Below, one piece after another: positions 8,415-15,678 of a DNA stretch of 26,646 bases; within the stretch, counting starts at the first letter, position 1, and every line of letters begins with the position of its first letter. The notes below the pieces were generated by a model that saw only the letters and a program-made list of their open reading frames with translations, was not told the origin of the DNA and did no database searches. The stretch is from IMG/VR virus record IMGVR_UViG_3300033076_000845, positions 1 through 26,646 of that record; one strand, written 5' to 3'. The DNA is from a virus. Its lineage: Duplodnaviria; Caudoviricetes. The position numbers were made by a program, and so were the translations under genes.

Positions 8415-9194
8415 ATGACCGCTTACTACAACGAAATTGACCCCTATGCAGCTCAATGGCTCAGGAATCTCATCGACGCTGGACACATCGCTCCTGGAAT
8501 CGTGGACGAGCGAAGCATCGAGGACGTCTACCCCAGCGACCTCCGAGGCTTCACGCAATGCCATTTCTTTGCCGGCATTGGCGTCTGGTCCTACGCCCTT
8601 CGGTCTGCCGGATGGGGTGACGATCGACCTGTTTGGACTGGCTCCTGTCCTTGCCAACCTTTCTCCGAGGCAGGCTCGGGAGCTGGGTTTGCTGACCAGC
8701 GGCACCTCTGGCCGTTATGGCATCACCTCATCAAGGAGTGTCGGCCTCCAAGCCTCTTTGGAGAGCAGGTTTCGGGAAAGCGTGTCGAACCTTGGATCGA
8801 CCTTGTACAAGATGACTTGGAAGTCATGGGTTACGCCTTTGGGGCGCTCGCGTTCCCGGCTTGCAGCGTCGGCGCTCAGAACATCCGAGACCGCTTGTAT
8901 TGGGTTGCCCACTCCGGACAGCACGATCTCGCAGGCCAAGCCTCGCCCGCCTGTGACAGCTGGCAGAAAGCCTACGGACCCACAAATCAGCCTGGCCTGC
9001 ATTGCCTACTGGATGGTCGCTCCTGGCCAGTCGAGTGGGTCTATTGCCCCGATGGATTCCGCCGCCCAATTGAACCCGGACTACGCGCGGTGGTTGATGC
9101 GTATCCCTCGCGAGTGGAGCGCTTGCGCGCCTACGGCAATGCCATCAACGCGTCGGCGGCGCGCGTCTTCATCGAAGCGGTGATGACCGCCTAA
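8415..9194 (+). CDS. C5-cytosine DNA methyltransferase (alpha-type chain lacking motif IX)
   Basis: Motif I FFAGIG, IV GSCPCQPFS, VI GEQV, VIII RDRLYWVA, X RLRAYGNAI. Confidence 0.92.
   Translation: MTAYYNEIDPYAAQWLRNLIDAGHIAPGIVDERSIEDVYPSDLRGFTQCHFFAGIGVWSYALRSAGWGDDRPVWTGSCPCQPFSEAGSGAGFADQRHLWPLWHHLIKECRPPSLFGEQVSGKRVEPWIDLVQDDLEVMGYAFGALAFPACSVGAQNIRDRLYWVAHSGQHDLAGQASPACDSWQKAYGPTNQPGLHCLLDGRSWPVEWVYCPDGFRRPIEPGLRAVVDAYPSRVERLRAYGNAINASAARVFIEAVMTA
8437..9183 (+). CDS. putative methyltransferase beta subunit in an overlapping +1 frame (true start uncertain)
   Basis: 248-codon open frame nested in the MTase gene, carrying the motif IX-like LNPDYARWLMRIPREW (9070-9117) and a PTP segment. 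Confidence 0.62.
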   Translation: MTPMQLNGSGISSTLDTSLLESWTSEASRTSTPATSEASRNAISLPALASGPTPFGLPDGVTIDLFGLAPVLANLSPRQARELGLLTSGTSGRYGITSSRSVGLQASLESRFRESVSNLGSTLYKMTWKSWVTPLGRSRSRLAASALRTSETACIGLPTPDSTISQAKPRPPVTAGRKPTDPQISLACIAYWMVAPGQSSGSIAPMDSAAQLNPDYARWLMRIPREWSACAPTAMPSTRRRRASSSKR

Positions 9195-9786: not shown

Positions 9787-10508
9787 CCCCAGAACAAAGA
9801 CAAGCCGTGTACCACGCATGGCTAAAGGCCCCAGGGCACTTCAACGAAATCGACCTGATCCGCATGGCCGAAGAAGCAACGCTCGCCGACCGAGAGCGGC
9901 AGGCCGGTGAGGCGGTGGCGTGGCCCGCAGAGCTGAGCAGCATCAGCCGCACGCAGCCTGTTCGCTTCAACGTCATCTACCGAGACGGCGGCGAGCCTGT
10001 GATCGACGACGATGACTTCAAGTTCGATGCGCTGATCAAGGTGCACGGCGACTTCGACAAAGGTGAAAAAGAAAAGTACGTCGCCGAGGTATGCAGGCGC
10101 TTGAATGGTGTCGCCTCCCTTCCTGCTCCCCAAGCAGTGCAGGCCGTACCCCAGTCGCTGATCGACGCGGTGCTGCGCTGGCACGACCCCAAGGGCGACA
10201 GCATGGGAGCGTGCGCCAACCTGAACAAAGAGATCGCGAACTGGCTCGCCGCCGCACCCTCTCCAGATGGCAAGGCCGAGCAGGCAGAAGCGCCGAGCGA
10301 GCACGACTTCGATGCATGGCACTGCGAGCGTTGCGACGGCACTGGCGAGCATTGGCAAGAGGAACAAGTTGGAGAGCGCCTGAGCGACAAGCAAACCATC
10401 AAGGTGGACTGTCAGAAGTGCGGCTGTCTCGGCTGGGAAGGCCCGGATGCGCAGAAGGCATACGACGCCCAAGAACGCGCCAAGCTGGCGCACAAGGAAA
10501 AATCATGA
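9783..10508 (+). CDS. mosaic early accessory protein with a C-terminal CxxCxGxG zinc finger
   Basis: TTG start overlapping the upstream stop, with a GGAG RBS; CERCDGTG...CQKCGCLG; Ala/Pro linkers. Confidence 0.65.
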   Translation: MTPEQRQAVYHAWLKAPGHFNEIDLIRMAEEATLADRERQAGEAVAWPAELSSISRTQPVRFNVIYRDGGEPVIDDDDFKFDALIKVHGDFDKGEKEKYVAEVCRRLNGVASLPAPQAVQAVPQSLIDAVLRWHDPKGDSMGACANLNKEIANWLAAAPSPDGKAEQAEAPSEHDFDAWHCERCDGTGEHWQEEQVGERLSDKQTIKVDCQKCGCLGWEGPDAQKAYDAQERAKLAHKEKS

Positions 10509-10888
10509 CCACTGAAAACACCATTGAGGCGTGGCTCTTCGAGCACGAAGACGGCCGGCACGCGGTGGGCGTCGGTGGCGGTTCACCAGATTTCACCCGT
10601 GGCGACCCGAAGTGGCATCGCGTCGGCCCCGTGGATGTATCGCGGGTCATTCAGGCCGCCACCCAGCCCACGGCCAGCCCTGAGCAGGCAGAAGCGCCGA
10701 GCGCCGTAAGCATCGTGCGACTCTCCCCGCTTCCCGCCCCAGACTTTTCCGAGCGGGTGTACGGGGGCCACGGCAATGAGATCGTTAACGATTACTTCGA
10801 AGCCCACACGGTGCGTGAATACGCGCGGCAGGAAGTCTATATGGCGGAGGAGGCCTGGAAAGCCCGCGCCACCCAGCCCACGGCCAGC
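10278..10888 (+). repeat. two pairs of 22-bp direct repeats in linker regions
   Basis: GAGCAGGCAGAAGCGCCGAGCG at 10278-10299 and 10682-10703; CGCCACCCAGCCCACGGCCAGC at 10657-10678 and 10867-10888. Confidence 0.9.
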
Positions 10889-11338
10889 AATGCGGGAGAG
10901 TTACCCGATCCGCAGGTCTTGCATGCGGTGGCCGATTACGAGTGCCCAAAGTGCAGAACGCGTATCCGGTACACCCCGCCGATCAAGCTCGGGTACACGG
11001 AAGAACAGATGCGCGCCGCCCTCGCCACCAAGCCGCCTGCCGGGGAGCAGAAGCCGGTGGGCGTAGTCGAGTCGGTTGCTCCTGGCGCTGGCGGATTCCA
11101 CGTTCGGCTGACCGGTGCGATGCCGCGCCTTGGCGATGCGCTGTACCTTGGGCCGCAGCCCGAGCAGGTGGCGCAGGACAAGATCGACGCGGAGCGGTGG
11201 CGAGTAGCTAGAGAAAGCCCGCTCCTGCTGTTCGAGCGGTGGGACAGCGTTGCGCTTCCGGCAGATGGTTGCGACGCCGCCGTTGACGAGGCCATCCGCG
11301 CAGCCCGCGCCCGGGGTGAGGGAGGGTCCAAGGGATGA
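10505..11338 (+). CDS. mosaic early accessory protein (Ea/Eaa-like modular)
   Basis: AAGGA RBS, ATG 10505; short modules separated by repeated ATQPTAS/EQAEAPS linkers; C-terminal DAERWR...D.A.D.A motif. Confidence 0.7.
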   Translation: MTTENTIEAWLFEHEDGRHAVGVGGGSPDFTRGDPKWHRVGPVDVSRVIQAATQPTASPEQAEAPSAVSIVRLSPLPAPDFSERVYGGHGNEIVNDYFEAHTVREYARQEVYMAEEAWKARATQPTASNAGELPDPQVLHAVADYECPKCRTRIRYTPPIKLGYTEEQMRAALATKPPAGEQKPVGVVESVAPGAGGFHVRLTGAMPRLGDALYLGPQPEQVAQDKIDAERWRVARESPLLLFERWDSVALPADGCDAAVDEAIRAARARGEGGSKG

Positions 11339-12084
11339 TCCATTACCACGGCCTGCCCATCACGCCAGAGACCGCTGCGGCTGTCGTCTTGCAGGGTGGG
11401 CACGGCTTCATCCCATTCACCGACGCTCGAAACACTGGGCTCGCAGCAGCGGCCTGTCAGTCGTTCGCCATCGATAACGGGGCGTTCACGGCCTGGAAGA
11501 AGGGAAACCCGATCCAAGACTGGCGCCCGTTCTACGAATGGGCCGGGCAATGCAAGCTGATCCCGTCCTGCGACTTTGCGGTGATCCCGGACGTGATCGA
11601 CGGCGACGAAGCGGCGAACGATGCGCTGGTCTCGGAGTGGCCGCTACCGCTCTGGTTTGGCGCGCCCGTCTGGCACATGCACGAAAGCCTGGCTCGGCTG
11701 GAACGCCTGGCCGCGAAGTTCCCACGCGTGTGTATCGGCAGCTCGGGCGAGTTCTCCAGCATCGGCACCGTTGCGTGGTGGGGCCAGATCGCCCGGGCCA
11801 TGCGCGTGGTCTGCGACGACGACGGCCGCCCACTGTGCAAGCTGCACGGCCTGCGCATGCTCGACCCCGCCATCTTCACCCGACTGCCGTTTTCATCGGC
11901 AGACAGCACCAACATCGGGCAGAACATCGGCATCGATCAAGCCTGGAAAGGCACGTATACCCCACCGACCAAAGAGGCGCGCGCCCAGGTCATGCGATCC
12001 CGCATCGAGTCTCAGAACGCGCCGGCACGGTGGGGCTTCATTGTCCCTGACGTGCCGCAACCAGAACAAGGAATCCTGCTGTGA
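11335..12084 (+). CDS. TGT/DpdA-like base-exchange transglycosylase
   Basis: DNGAF (D47; compare TGT DSGGF), PDVI (D86), PVWH (H114), CIGS, LHGL, SADST (D190), in TGT-barrel order; no CxCxxC zinc site. Confidence 0.75.
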   Translation: MIHYHGLPITPETAAAVVLQGGHGFIPFTDARNTGLAAAACQSFAIDNGAFTAWKKGNPIQDWRPFYEWAGQCKLIPSCDFAVIPDVIDGDEAANDALVSEWPLPLWFGAPVWHMHESLARLERLAAKFPRVCIGSSGEFSSIGTVAWWGQIARAMRVVCDDDGRPLCKLHGLRMLDPAIFTRLPFSSADSTNIGQNIGIDQAWKGTYTPPTKEARAQVMRSRIESQNAPARWGFIVPDVPQPEQGILL

Positions 12085-12332
12085 ACACCTACCGCACCCA
12101 GTTTGCCGCGACGTGCCCCTCCGATGGGCAGCGAATCATCTACAGCCTCGAAATGCGCACCGCCGAGACGGTCATGGTTGAGCAGATCAACGACGCCCTG
12201 GACGAGATCCGAGAGGACTACCAAGAGAACATCGCCACCCGTTTGGCTGAGTCGTTTCCTCAGTGCGCGATAAGCCTGCAGGGCGTTCACCAAGGCGTGG
12301 AAATCGTCAGCGAGATCGGGGCCACCCCATGA
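12081..12332 (+). CDS. minimal T-fold protein, QueF/QueF-L-like
   Basis: F...CP..G (C12), VE (E34), QE.IA (E49), HQGVEI; GTGA-coupled to the TGT-like gene. Confidence 0.62.
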   Translation: MNTYRTQFAATCPSDGQRIIYSLEMRTAETVMVEQINDALDEIREDYQENIATRLAESFPQCAISLQGVHQGVEIVSEIGATP

Positions 12333-12898
12333 CCACCCAATCCCACACCGAGCTGGCAGCGCGCGCACGCGACTACGCCGATCGCATCGACCCATTCAAA
12401 CGGGTCGGGCTGGACAACCTGACTTGTAGTTCTGCCGCCGATGCGCTTCGCCAGTGCGCCGCCGCCCTGGAGTCACCCGAGCGAGTGCAGGGGGATGGGG
12501 AAGACGTGTGGCTTGTGCGGAAGGCCGACACGGACGTGTTCCAGCATCCAGCATATGGCCCCGTGATCTTCTTCACCGAGGACGCTGCACTCGCCCCCAC
12601 CCCACCCACCGCACCGGCTCAAGATGCGCAGAGGGAGGCGACTGGCTGGAAGCGATGCGAAGCCTGCAACGGAAAGGGCGACTCAGCATCTGGTCGGACG
12701 GCTTGCGGGGGATGCCGTGGGTCCGGGCGAGTTTTTGCCACCCCATCCCCGCAGGCAGAGGTGGACGAGGGCGCCATTGACGACGTGATCGACAAGTACA
12801 TCGTCGAGGTCGCCAACACAAAGGCCGTTTTGAACCCGATGGCGTTTGCCAAGAGCGTGCTTGCTCTGGCTGGCATCGTCACCAAGGAGAGCACATGA
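12329..12898 (+). CDS. mosaic accessory protein with a DnaJ-type CxxCxGxG zinc finger
   Basis: CEACNGKG...CGGCRGSG; ATGA coupling at 12329. Confidence 0.65.
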   Translation: MTTQSHTELAARARDYADRIDPFKRVGLDNLTCSSAADALRQCAAALESPERVQGDGEDVWLVRKADTDVFQHPAYGPVIFFTEDAALAPTPPTAPAQDAQREATGWKRCEACNGKGDSASGRTACGGCRGSGRVFATPSPQAEVDEGAIDDVIDKYIVEVANTKAVLNPMAFAKSVLALAGIVTKEST

Positions 12899-13149
12899 GC
12901 GACGAAGCCGTGACATGGGTTGAAACAACCCGCGAGGTCTACGCCGCCATCTACCGACAGCACATCGGCCAACTCGGGGTGTTTGGCACGATTTCGCGCG
13001 GGGAGGATGACTGGTACGGCGAACGCCACATGATGACCGAATGGGGATTCAAAGGCGCAGATTTTCCGCTGATCAAACACGACGAACGTGGCACGCCTGC
13101 GGTTCACAGCTACTTCATCGCGTCTGTCAAGGAGACCAGCAATGTCTGA
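12895..13149 (+). CDS. hypothetical phage protein
   Basis: AAGGAG RBS; ATGA coupling. Confidence 0.7.
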   Translation: MSDEAVTWVETTREVYAAIYRQHIGQLGVFGTISRGEDDWYGERHMMTEWGFKGADFPLIKHDERGTPAVHSYFIASVKETSNV

Positions 13150-13501
13150 CACCACCCCCATTCCACCAGCAAGCGAGAGGGAGAGGTTTGAGGCGTGGGC
13201 CATTGAGCATCACGAGGATGTCCCCCAATGGACAGGGTCGAGATACCGCCAAGACGTATGGGAAGACCTCTGGATCGCCTGGCAAGCCCGTGCCGCCCTC
13301 TCCCACCCCAGCACTCCGCAAGGGTGGCAACCGATTGAGCCACTCGACCTGAACGTCTTTGCTGAGATTTGCCACAACGCTCACATCGACTTCGCGCTGG
13401 ACAAGTTCCCCAGCTACGAGCGGGCAATCGAGCATCACTACATCTGGATGCTGAACGCCATCAACGCTCAGCGCCCTCCAGAACAAGGAGGCAAGGGATG
13501 A
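13142..13501 (+). CDS. hypothetical phage protein (ERERFEAW...W.AWQARAAL module)
   Basis: AAGGAG RBS before ATG 13142; common early-region phage module followed by GWQPIE. Confidence 0.7.
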   Translation: MSDTTPIPPASERERFEAWAIEHHEDVPQWTGSRYRQDVWEDLWIAWQARAALSHPSTPQGWQPIEPLDLNVFAEICHNAHIDFALDKFPSYERAIEHHYIWMLNAINAQRPPEQGGKG

Positions 13502-13812
13502 GCACGCTGCACCTTTCTCTGAAGCGCGAGTACTTCGAGGCGATCCGCGATGGATCGAAGACCGAGGAATACCGGCTTTGCACGCCCTACTGGCAGAAGC
13601 GCCTTGCATCTCCGTTCGGCCTGTATGACCGCATCGTTCTCACGCTGGGCTACCCGGCCCGCGATGACCACTCGCGCCGTCTTGAGCGTCCATTCGAGGG
13701 CTACACGATCAAGACCATCACGCACCCGCACTTCGGGCCCGATCCTGTCACGGTCTACGCGATCAAGGTCAACCCTGTGCCCGCCCTTCATACAAAGGAA
13801 ACCTCACCATGA
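13498..13812 (+). CDS. ASCH-domain protein
   Basis: L.L...YFEAI.DG.KTEEYR (GxKxxExR) motif; AAGGAGG RBS before ATG 13498. Confidence 0.85.
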   Translation: MSTLHLSLKREYFEAIRDGSKTEEYRLCTPYWQKRLASPFGLYDRIVLTLGYPARDDHSRRLERPFEGYTIKTITHPHFGPDPVTVYAIKVNPVPALHTKETSP

Positions 13813-14318
13813 CCACAGCATTCGATGCAATGGTGTTTGCCCGCCACGTGCACGCCAACCAGAGGCGCAAGTACACCGGCAACCCTTACGCTGACCACTT
13901 GGCAGAAGTCGCCGGCATCGTCGCCACGGTCCAGCACGAATTCATGGTGCCACCTGGGGTGATTCTTGCAACAGCTTGGCTCCATGACTGCGTGGAAGAC
14001 CAGGGCGTTAGCCTGCAGACCATTGCGGACAAGTTCGGCAATATGGTCGCCATAGGCGTATCGGGCCTGTCCGACTTGGAGACGGGAAATCGCGCCGAGC
14101 GGAAAGCTGCCAGTCGAGAGAGGTTGGCAGCGTGCTCAAGCTGGATTCAGACCATCAAGTGCGCCGATCTGATCAGCAACACATCCAGCATTGTTGAGCA
14201 CGATCCAAAGTTCGCAGTGGTGTATCTCGAAGAGAAACGCATGCTGCTCGACGTTCTAACCAAAGCAGACCCGAGACTGAGGGCCATAGCAATGGACAAC
14301 ATGAGGGTTTCTCCATGA
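13809..14318 (+). CDS. HD-domain small alarmone hydrolase-like protein (RelA/SpoT HD, Mesh1-like)
   Basis: H..Q.RK....PY..H..EVA, LHDCVED, FG..VA..V..LSD, IK.AD.ISN motifs; no synthetase domain. Confidence 0.88.
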   Translation: MTTAFDAMVFARHVHANQRRKYTGNPYADHLAEVAGIVATVQHEFMVPPGVILATAWLHDCVEDQGVSLQTIADKFGNMVAIGVSGLSDLETGNRAERKAASRERLAACSSWIQTIKCADLISNTSSIVEHDPKFAVVYLEEKRMLLDVLTKADPRLRAIAMDNMRVSP

Positions 14319-14745: not shown

Positions 14746-15678
14746 ATGGCAAGAGCAGTCCAAACCCCGTCCGGCGCATGGCGCATCCAGCTCAAGATCA
14801 ACGGACAGAAGTTGTCCAAGACGCTCGACAAGAAGCGAGATGTCGAGCAATGGGCATTGGAGCAGCAGGCGCTGGGCAAGCGCCTCAAAGGCGGGTGGCG
14901 CACCTTCAAGGACGCTGCCGAGAAGTACATGGACGAAGTGTCTGCCAAGAAGGGCGGCGAGAAGTGGGAGCGCATCCGCATTGCCTATTTCATTGAGCAC
15001 TTCGGCAAAGTCCCCCTGGGGGAACTTGATTCCCCCCATATGGCCCACTGGCGGGATGCCCGGCTCAAGAGCGTCAGCGGCTCCACAGTCGTGCGAGAAG
15101 CCGCCCTACTGAAACACATCTTGAGCACTGCCCGGGATGAATGGCGGTGGATGGAGCACAACCCATTCAGGGGGGTGAAAATGCCTTCTGAGGCCGAGCC
15201 ACGGGATGCCCGGTGGAAATGGCACCAGATCAAAAAGGTGCTCCGACAAGGCCAAAGGGGCGGCCCAAAGATGCAGGAAGTGGCCGACGCCTTCCACATC
15301 GCACTGCGCACGGCAATGCGCCTGCAGGAGGTTCTAGCGGCTCCACAAGGCTTCGACAAGGCTCGAAGGGTGGTCACGCTGTCGCGGACTAAGACCGGCA
15401 AGGCGGTTGTGCCGGTAGGCAGGATTGCGGCCAAGCTGTTGGACAGGCCGGCGTTCACCGTAGGGGCAAACGAAGCCTCAACCCTGTTCGCCAGGATGAC
15501 CAAGCAGGTTCTGATCGACGGCCTGACTTTTCACGATTCCCGAGGAACCGCCCTCACCCACATGGCGAAGAAGGTGCCGGTGGAGATTTTGGCGAAGGTC
15601 TCCAGGCATCGCGACATATCCATGCTGGTGCGGACCTACTATCGGCCTACCCCGGAAGAGGTCGCCAAGAGGTTATGA
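14746..15678 (+). CDS. int: tyrosine integrase
   Basis: Catalytic set R (TAMRLQE), K (TKTG), HxxR (FHDSR), H (SRH), Y (RTYY). Confidence 0.95.
   Translation: MARAVQTPSGAWRIQLKINGQKLSKTLDKKRDVEQWALEQQALGKRLKGGWRTFKDAAEKYMDEVSAKKGGEKWERIRIAYFIEHFGKVPLGELDSPHMAHWRDARLKSVSGSTVVREAALLKHILSTARDEWRWMEHNPFRGVKMPSEAEPRDARWKWHQIKKVLRQGQRGGPKMQEVADAFHIALRTAMRLQEVLAAPQGFDKARRVVTLSRTKTGKAVVPVGRIAAKLLDRPAFTVGANEASTLFARMTKQVLIDGLTFHDSRGTALTHMAKKVPVEILAKVSRHRDISMLVRTYYRPTPEEVAKRL

Follow-up and report, generated by a model that had tools for sequence, protein, structure and literature searches.

The window analysed here is the whole 26,646-nucleotide stretch of virus record IMGVR_UViG_3300033076_000845 (Duplodnaviria; Caudoviricetes), a 26.6-kb fragment with an estimated completeness of 69%. 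Two adjacent genes, referred to as gene 1 and gene 2, lie on its plus strand with the following features:

11285..11324 (+): left junction stretch, common to related phages with other DNA replacing the pair (run X2 and X3 contigs)
11321..11325 (+): Shine-Dalgarno-like GGAGG for gene 1, from the sequence
11335-11338 (+): ATGA, in which the gene 1 ATG overlaps the upstream stop codon
11335..12084 (+): gene 1, 249-aa ORF, putative compact phage DpdA of the DpdA-only group (D47, F51, D86, H114, H171, D190)
12068..12084 (+): Shine-Dalgarno-like AAGGA and the GTGA stop/start overlap of gene 1 and gene 2
12081..12332 (+): gene 2, 83-aa ORF with a GTG start, predicted single T-fold protein, QueF-L-like
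12321..12364 (+): right junction stretch, comprising the gene 2 end and the start of the next gene (run X2 and X3 contigs)

The initial annotation had described two genes sharing a GTGA overlap, and both ORFs, with all the residues quoted for them, were found in place. The overlap had also been read as translational coupling. We have rejected such coupling as evidence of a module, since overlaps join nearly all early genes from 10505 to 14318 in the same manner; with 4-nt overlaps being common to the neighbours, the link between gene 1 and gene 2 rests on their co-occurrence. The third-position GC of the pair (0.80 and 0.81) was the highest among the 16 genes checked. The contig also encodes a repressor, Erf, SSB, a DNA methylase, an excisionase-like gene and an integrase, and judged from this gene content the pair sits within an accessory early operon of a temperate phage. 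Profiles for FolE, QueD, QueC, YhhQ and the radical-SAM protein QueE gave no match in the ~69% complete contig, in agreement with the earlier remark that folE, queD, queE and queC are missing. Among the annotated ORFs of the window there was no DpdB or DpdC, and the window likewise showed neither a cyclase nor a QueC-like Cap9.

A contig from run X1 spans 11390-12492 with zero differences to the window; this run may stem from the sample in which the record originated. The contigs from runs X2 and X3 match both junctions, with 229 or 126 different letters where the window has the pair, and run X1 shows the same joint as X2/X3. The slot of the pair might thus be an exchangeable one, but with matched junction sides of just 26-37 letters this is no more than a hint. 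Searches for empty-site relatives via the flanking genes were unsuccessful, and no RNA holder was present among those listed. Four-mer counts gave no target-motif signal, with just the usual CTAG and TATA lows.

The mosaic early genes contain two exact 22-nt direct repeats (10657-10678/10867-10888 and 10278-10299/10682-10703). Contigs of other runs were joined at such repeat places, which suggests that these are shuffling points for accessory segments. The C5 cytosine methylase (259 aa, Pfam PF00145; 8415-9194, +) contains, in the next frame, a nested ORF of 248 aa (8437-9183, +), the end of which resembles methylase motif IX; the arrangement is reminiscent of the two-frame organization of M.EcoHK31I. 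Just before the excisionase-like gene, the segment 13498-14318 (+) holds a phrog_625 protein ("unknown function") and an HD phosphohydrolase. In the region 14746-15678 to 16199, the integrase is directly followed by opposite-strand late genes, with an SU10 adaptor and a stabilisation protein further on, which is the gene order of an excised, attP-joined genome.

Gene 1 matched PHROG 887 (labelled queuine tRNA-ribosyltransferase) with an E-value of 9e-66, and at least 6904 relatives were present among the 8000 candidates scored. Its model (pLDDT 84) was an eight-stranded barrel. The top four matches among 48,161 chains all belonged to the TGT family, namely arcTGT (Z 15.2, rmsd 3.9, 233 aligned residues), Cap10 (Z 15.1), bacterial TGT (Z 14.4) and Salmonella DpdA (Z 14.0), which agreed with the TGT/DpdA barrel originally proposed. 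The first unrelated barrel, an aldolase, reached Z 13.8, with the TGT-family matches just 0.2-1.4 higher, and hence the fold on its own is a narrow call. In Foldseek, tryptophan synthase came first by E-value and Cap10 had the top TM-score (0.61). At the sequence level, it is the motifs that settle gene 1 as a member of the TGT/DpdA family. D47, F51, D86, H114 and D190 parallel the catalytic residues D95, F99, D130, H181 and D256 of Salmonella DpdA (PMC10164549, sections available) in a mapping by motif order and not by atomic superposition. D47 lies within DNGAF, D190 within SADST, and H171 opens an H-G-L motif; D47, D86, H114 and D190, the counterparts of three invariant Asp residues and of the His on the base edge, are conserved in at least 193/194 grouped sequences of the family. 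The CxCxxC zinc motif was absent from all 205 family sequences, as had been noted for gene 1 itself.

Pfam gave no match for gene 1 or for 37 of its relatives, and PDB sequence searches with gene 1, A2, A3 and A4 returned nothing significant, the cardiotoxin and nucleoporin rows (E 0.4-1.8) being dismissed as chance. Profile comparisons were likewise not significant for gene 1 against host TGT (probability 0.4%) and for gene 2 against host QueF (probability 0.2%); the assignments thus rest on structure, motifs and PHROG/tblastn kinship. In the ESM Atlas, gene 1 matched a cluster with 29% Pfam DpdA at 0.92. At two loci (L137 and L138), the DpdA match starts at residue 95, beside a full-length match to the small gene; these are probably broken DpdA copies.

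Two characterized systems share features with gene 1. The Dpd system of Salmonella Montevideo (DpdA/B/C; 7ui4), whose end product is dADG, has a DpdA with the same catalytic residues; that protein has 413 aa versus 249 aa in gene 1, DpdB and DpdC are missing from the annotated ORFs of the window, and the amide step, if performed by gene 2, would use a fold unrelated to DpdC. Cap10 of type IV CBASS (9ntn) is a zinc-less TGT barrel that reads amido-deazaguanine and has a His beside the nucleophilic Asp, as in gene 1. In contrast to type IV CBASS, the window is devoid of a cyclase or Cap9, and the pair belongs to a phage early operon. According to the accessible text of bioRxiv 2025.04.06.647259, type IV CBASS uses an amido-deazaguanine conjugate, which keeps an anti-defence role open for the pair without lending it support.

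Searching with gene 1 by tblastn retrieved 106 phage records. MED16 gp38, a DpdA, was 35% identical (E 1e-36), and phage 7-11 has a gene with 31% identity (E 2e-21) that we infer to be the published dpdA, the homology extending over 86-92% of gene 1. The window and MED16 DpdAs are identical at 23 of the 28 chosen active-site positions. MED16 and 7-11 share the active-site motifs and PHROG 887 with gene 1, and they do not carry the precursor pathway, no gene of which was matched in the ~69% complete contig of the window. On its kinship and motifs, gene 1 is a new member of this known DpdA-only phage group. The missing pathway genes and the compact zinc-less barrel had been regarded as unusual; the available sections of PMC6884629 had already presented in 2019 a group of 76 phages, 7-11 among them, with DpdA and without pathway genes. 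The proposed reliance on a host precursor was supported, and given the kinship of gene 1 with the MED16 and 7-11 DpdAs it is not new, being already known for DpdA-only phages. QueC as well as QueF was present in each of the five carrier genomes tested. MED16 and 7-11 are gamma-proteobacterial phages without the small T-fold, whereas the window DpdA falls in a betaproteobacterial prophage clade.

DNA modification has already been measured in this group. The accessible part of PMC8306585 gives 354 dADG and 3 dPreQ0 per million nucleotides for MED16 DNA, or ~33 dADG sites per genome by our own arithmetic, and reports that, a methyl-adenine effect aside, the restriction enzymes tested did cut this DNA. 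In phage 7-11 DNA, 50 dADG were found and dPreQ0 was undetectable (PMC6884629, as available). The protection from restriction that had been suggested for the pair did not hold up: an anti-restriction benefit of dADG is unsupported, since at the MED16 level this base blocked none of the enzymes tested on MED16 DNA. In the accessible text of both papers, the origin and purpose of dADG in DpdA-only phages are posed as questions, and in that of the 7-11 paper the preQ0-to-ADG step on DNA is predicted to be performed by a protein of the phage. The small T-fold gene is absent from MED16, 7-11 and BTP1, and since MED16 and 7-11 have dADG, gene 2 is not required for this modification. The cultured phages Epa33 and Mae-JY30 do have the small gene beside DpdA, and the DNA of these two carriers is open to direct analysis.

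Gene 2, and not gene 1, is the new part of the pair. Its model (pLDDT 95.7) followed the T-fold order strand-strand-helix-helix-strand-strand, and QueF-L of Pyrobaculum calidifontis (5jyx; Z 13.2, rmsd 1.4, 83 aligned residues) was the best structural match, followed by GTP cyclohydrolase I (Z 10.3) and the unimodular Bacillus subtilis QueF (4f8b; Z 10.0), which supported the QueF-L-like T-fold put forward initially. Residues 1-83 aligned with 10-103 of 5jyx, so that C12 falls on Cys21. Like this QueF-L, gene 2 would be a single T-fold with its Cys in register and no NADPH motif; it differs in being ~20 residues shorter, with 17% identity, no Asp at Cys+7, near-invariant His70 and Tyr21, an acidic character and a phage-borne position beside a DNA transglycosylase. 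By sequence, the catalytic Cys55 and the binding residues Glu78 and Glu97 of B. subtilis QueF have their counterparts in C12, E34 and E49, with the Cys, the Glu of MVE and that of F/Y-H-E coming in the same order in QueF; Asp62 and the E(S/L)K(S/A)hK(L/Y)(Y/F/W) motif of QueF have no counterpart in gene 2. C12-P13, D15, I19 and H70-x-G-V complete its motifs. Gene 2 matched phrog_37496, a family annotated as "unknown function", and had no family match in Pfam (QueF included) or NCBIfam. In the ESM Atlas, just unnamed clusters were matched at 0.9 or more, with QueF at 0.86 and 0.81 as leads.

A profile search yielded 677 clusters of gene 2 relatives at 50% identity, and conservation was counted over the best 150 of these 677 representatives. 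Within this set, C12 (149/150), E34 (148/150) and E49 (150/150) were accompanied by H70 (149/150), Y21 (147/150), N2 (147/150), Y4 (150/150) and F8 (150/150), and position 48 was His in 123 and Gln in 27, with Gln in the window. At position 19, the site of QueF Asp62, there was Ile in 125, Val in 24 and Met in one. The replacement of the Asp by Ile19 seen in the window thus turned out to be family-wide, the proton-donor Asp occurring in none of the best 150 of 677. We have also rejected D15 as a substitute acid, given that among the 150 relatives position 15 holds Asn 87 times and Asp 56 times. The NADPH-binding QueF motif was found in 0/151 rows. As far as these motifs tell, gene 2 is not a QueF by the criteria in the accessible text of PMC5372742 and is unable to reduce preQ0. 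The phage QueF proteins described in the available part of bioRxiv 2023.04.13.536721 retain the NADPH motif; the QueF/"QueF-L" proteins of phages Dp-1 and HVTV-1, grouped with unimodular QueF, have a T-fold like gene 2. The net charge of gene 2 is -8, and it is negative in 119 of the 150 relatives, with a family median of -2.

A four-copy prediction of gene 2 scored 0.55, the best control being 0.01; the runs agreed in all contacts and pLDDT was at least 88. V33/E34 of one copy were placed against H70-G72 of the next, so that His70 would line a predicted shared pocket. The oligomer mark was reached by 20/30 solved pairs and 1/23 single chains in a calibration made with two copies only, and the four-copy pass may reflect likeness to solved T-folds. 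No DpdA fusion of the small protein was found among the long representatives. Separately, the small T-fold was fused to a QueD-like domain in three of 149 representatives by profile (P0186, P0172, P0200) and in a fourth by eye (P0207), in either order and with the cysteine of CxxxHGH missing from the QueD-like part. In the literature covered, with supplements and most subscription journals outside its scope, no description of the family was found, and some of its members may be listed in the phage tables that accompany the 2019 and 2023 papers. Gene 2 represents a widespread, apparently undescribed family that is an optional accessory on a known DNA-modifying enzyme.

The proposed co-occurrence of the two genes held from the side of the small gene. 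This had a DpdA relative within 544 bases in 80/80 loci (best 80 of 171 viral), with a gap of at most 120 bases in 76 of the 80 and in both gene orders, in a set that is redundant, seemingly dominated by one clade and overlapping with the DpdA locus set. It did not hold from the side of DpdA, which was accompanied by the small T-fold in 49/160 loci (best 80 of 597 viral plus best 80 of 142 genome loci) and stood without it in 111/160, as well as in MED16 and 7-11; an obligatory two-gene system is thus not supported. Within 2.5 kb of the viral DpdAs (best 80 of 597), the partners were YhhQ-like in 34 loci, the small T-fold in 23, QueD-like in 13, T-fold plus YhhQ in six, QueD-like plus QueC in one and YhhQ plus QueC in one, the two loci with no partner being both incomplete. 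The genome loci (best 80 of 142) had no partner in 47 cases, of which 10 extended less than 1.5 kb on one side by our own count, and otherwise T-fold (18), YhhQ (8), QueD-like (4), T-fold plus YhhQ (2) or QueD-like plus QueC (1). The YhhQ, QueD and QueC profiles behind these counts were built from six, five and two DpdA loci and may miss distant forms, and the partner Pfam names come from representatives.

Partners have moved between DpdA lineages. On a quick tree of 103 of the 205 DpdA sequences, the partner label needed 21 changes, compared with ~33 for shuffles, and at least nine of the 21 were forced by strong branches. DpdA and partner identities were correlated (Spearman 0.63, 102 distinct pairs), and in 312/5151 comparisons partners at least 80% alike accompanied DpdAs less than 60% alike. 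The DpdAs closest to that of the window (80-83%) had partners only 41-48% like gene 2. The DpdA pocket did not differ between 103 sequences from carriers, 52 with another partner and 39 standing alone, and no pocket residue distinguished DpdAs with the small partner from those without. Judged by these distributions, gene 2 is an optional, swappable accessory of DpdA. Exchange across DpdA clades together with an unchanged pocket is easier to reconcile with a diffusible product than with a fixed protein partner, the overall correlation of identities counting against it. Temperate phages combine DpdA with four or more deazaguanine accessory genes that can replace one another, and the slot of the small T-fold is otherwise occupied by genes of precursor-supply type (YhhQ, QueD-like, QueC).

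We regard it as slightly less than an even call that in the gene 2 family the QueF/QueF-L site has been rebuilt, with His/Tyr in place of Asp, so that it either hydrates nitriles with no cofactor or leads to a DNA base that is not yet catalogued. The scheme that we tentatively favour is that gene 1 swaps DNA guanine for a host 7-deazaguanine and that gene 2 hydrates free preQ0 to ADG for DpdA. Gene 1 would likely cut guanine out at a small number of phage DNA sites, with D190 as the putative nucleophile and D47 as acid/base, and would insert a 7-deazaguanine taken from the host, with dADG as the most likely result. Gene 2 would assemble into a ring and bind free preQ0 between its subunits, with E34 and E49 gripping the base; C12 would attack the nitrile to form a thioimide, His70 and/or Tyr21 would replace the lost Asp, and water, rather than NADPH or ammonia, would resolve the thioimide to the amide, ADG. 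ADG, an intermediate of host QueC, would be the base accepted by this DpdA group, or its end point, and the DpdA accessories would raise precursor supply.

Several observations are consistent with this scheme. MED16 and 7-11 have dADG, almost no dPreQ0 and no small gene, and with the pocket being the same this suggests that the DpdA group takes ADG. The preserved Cys and base-holding Glu residues, the acidic charge and the swapping between clades would fit an enzyme acting on the free base, the charge argument being weak because the family median is only -2 and gene 1 is likewise slightly acidic (pI 5.85). We know of no precedent for a hydratase of the QueF fold, and it also counts against the scheme that QueF-L, the closest fold, uses ammonia and a tRNA-bound substrate. 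In the sections available, PMC5485725 reports that QueF-L turned over tRNA-bound preQ0 only and that G+ in its free form breaks down to preQ0. This speaks against an amidine being formed on the free base, and the simplest chemistry left for gene 2 would be hydration to ADG. E. coli QueF is inactive when Asp197 is varied (PMC13740343, accessible text), and thus the thioimide may never form in the Asp-less gene 2. Not being required for dADG, gene 2 might alter the product instead.

It is possible, if unlikely, that gene 2 binds a 7-deazaguanine (preQ0, ADG or CDG) without turnover, as a carrier shielding it from host QueF or as a sponge starving deazaguanine-using host defences such as type IV CBASS and QatABCD. 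The proton-donor Asp is gone in 150/150 relatives and Asp loss kills QueF, the Glu residues gripping the base are retained, and type IV CBASS relies on a 7-deazaguanine conjugate (bioRxiv 2025.04.06.647259, available part). However, the near-invariant Cys and the new near-invariant His and Tyr look catalytic, tight binding would lower DpdA supply, and a sponge would not need DpdA, yet this lies beside gene 2 in 80/80 loci (best 80 of 171). That gene 2 is a true QueF-L analogue, adding ammonia to DNA-bound preQ0 to give dG+ (archaeosine), seems to us distinctly unlikely. QueF-L has an active-site Asp (Asp28) seven residues after the Cys, which gene 2 has lost, and partners swap between DpdA clades and share their slot with supply genes. 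The relatives of gene 1 give dADG and almost no dPreQ0, the substrate needed, and the free G+ base is unstable (PMC5485725, as accessible); the acidic character of gene 2 is a weak argument in the same direction. These points have to be set against the clear top match to 5jyx (Z 13.2 versus 10.0 for QueF), the missing NADPH motif, as in QueF-L, and an optional presence that suits a tailoring step.

The product could also be made on DNA, with DpdA inserting preQ0 and gene 2, as a functional analogue of DpdC, hydrating DNA-bound dPreQ0 to dADG. Salmonella DpdC performs that step independently of DpdA/B (PMC10164549), QueF-L accepts nucleic-acid-bound preQ0 (PMC5485725) and the 7-11 paper predicted such a phage protein (PMC6884629), all according to the available text; we nevertheless consider it improbable, as MED16 and 7-11 reach dADG without gene 2, the surface of which is acidic. 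A slim chance is given to gene 2 making a base uncatalogued in DNA, by thioimide transfer to another nucleophile or from preQ1 or CDG, for insertion by DpdA. The rewiring of the active site, in which N-terminal N2/Y4 as well as Y21 and H70 are invariant, and the fusions to Cys-less QueD-like domains described above would be compatible with such chemistry, but the DpdA pocket is identical in carriers and non-carriers. Host tRNA in place of DNA, which the initial annotation had left as an alternative target, is highly improbable. While the top structural matches of gene 1 include arcTGT and TGT and QueF-L acts on tRNA (PMC5485725, sections available), His114 follows DpdA His181 where host TGT has Gln, the zinc domain is absent, and the relatives modify DNA according to the accessible reports.

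The pair names a candidate enzyme for dADG supply in DpdA-only phages, together with specific residues. If true, the rebuilding of the site, whether into a hydratase or as a way to a new DNA base, would represent a third chemistry on the QueF/QueF-L scaffold, carried by a plug-in accessory of temperate-phage DpdA that diverts a host queuosine precursor, and a metal- and cofactor-free nitrile-acting T-fold would be of interest to QueF enzymologists.

Further deazaguanine genes were seen at the loci surveyed. The QueD-like genes directly beside DpdA at L005, L020, L040-L046, L048, L049, L051, L078, L174, L178 and L181 did not have the catalytic Cys four residues before HGH; together with the small T-fold, such genes occurred in none of the best 80 of 597 viral DpdA loci. 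Canonical Cys-bearing QueD genes were located 0.6-1.7 kb downstream of the pair at two loci (L110:5508-5624 and L112:6606-6917), possibly in host DNA at a prophage edge. Short QueC homologues of 174-178 aa directly follow DpdA at L015:4747-5280 and L034:1675-2196 and are possible ADG-synthase variants. In one carrier genome (G003:C23:75514-78270), a second QueC and a weak TGT-like match are 1.7 kb apart, in what is possibly a Dpd- or type IV CBASS-like island.
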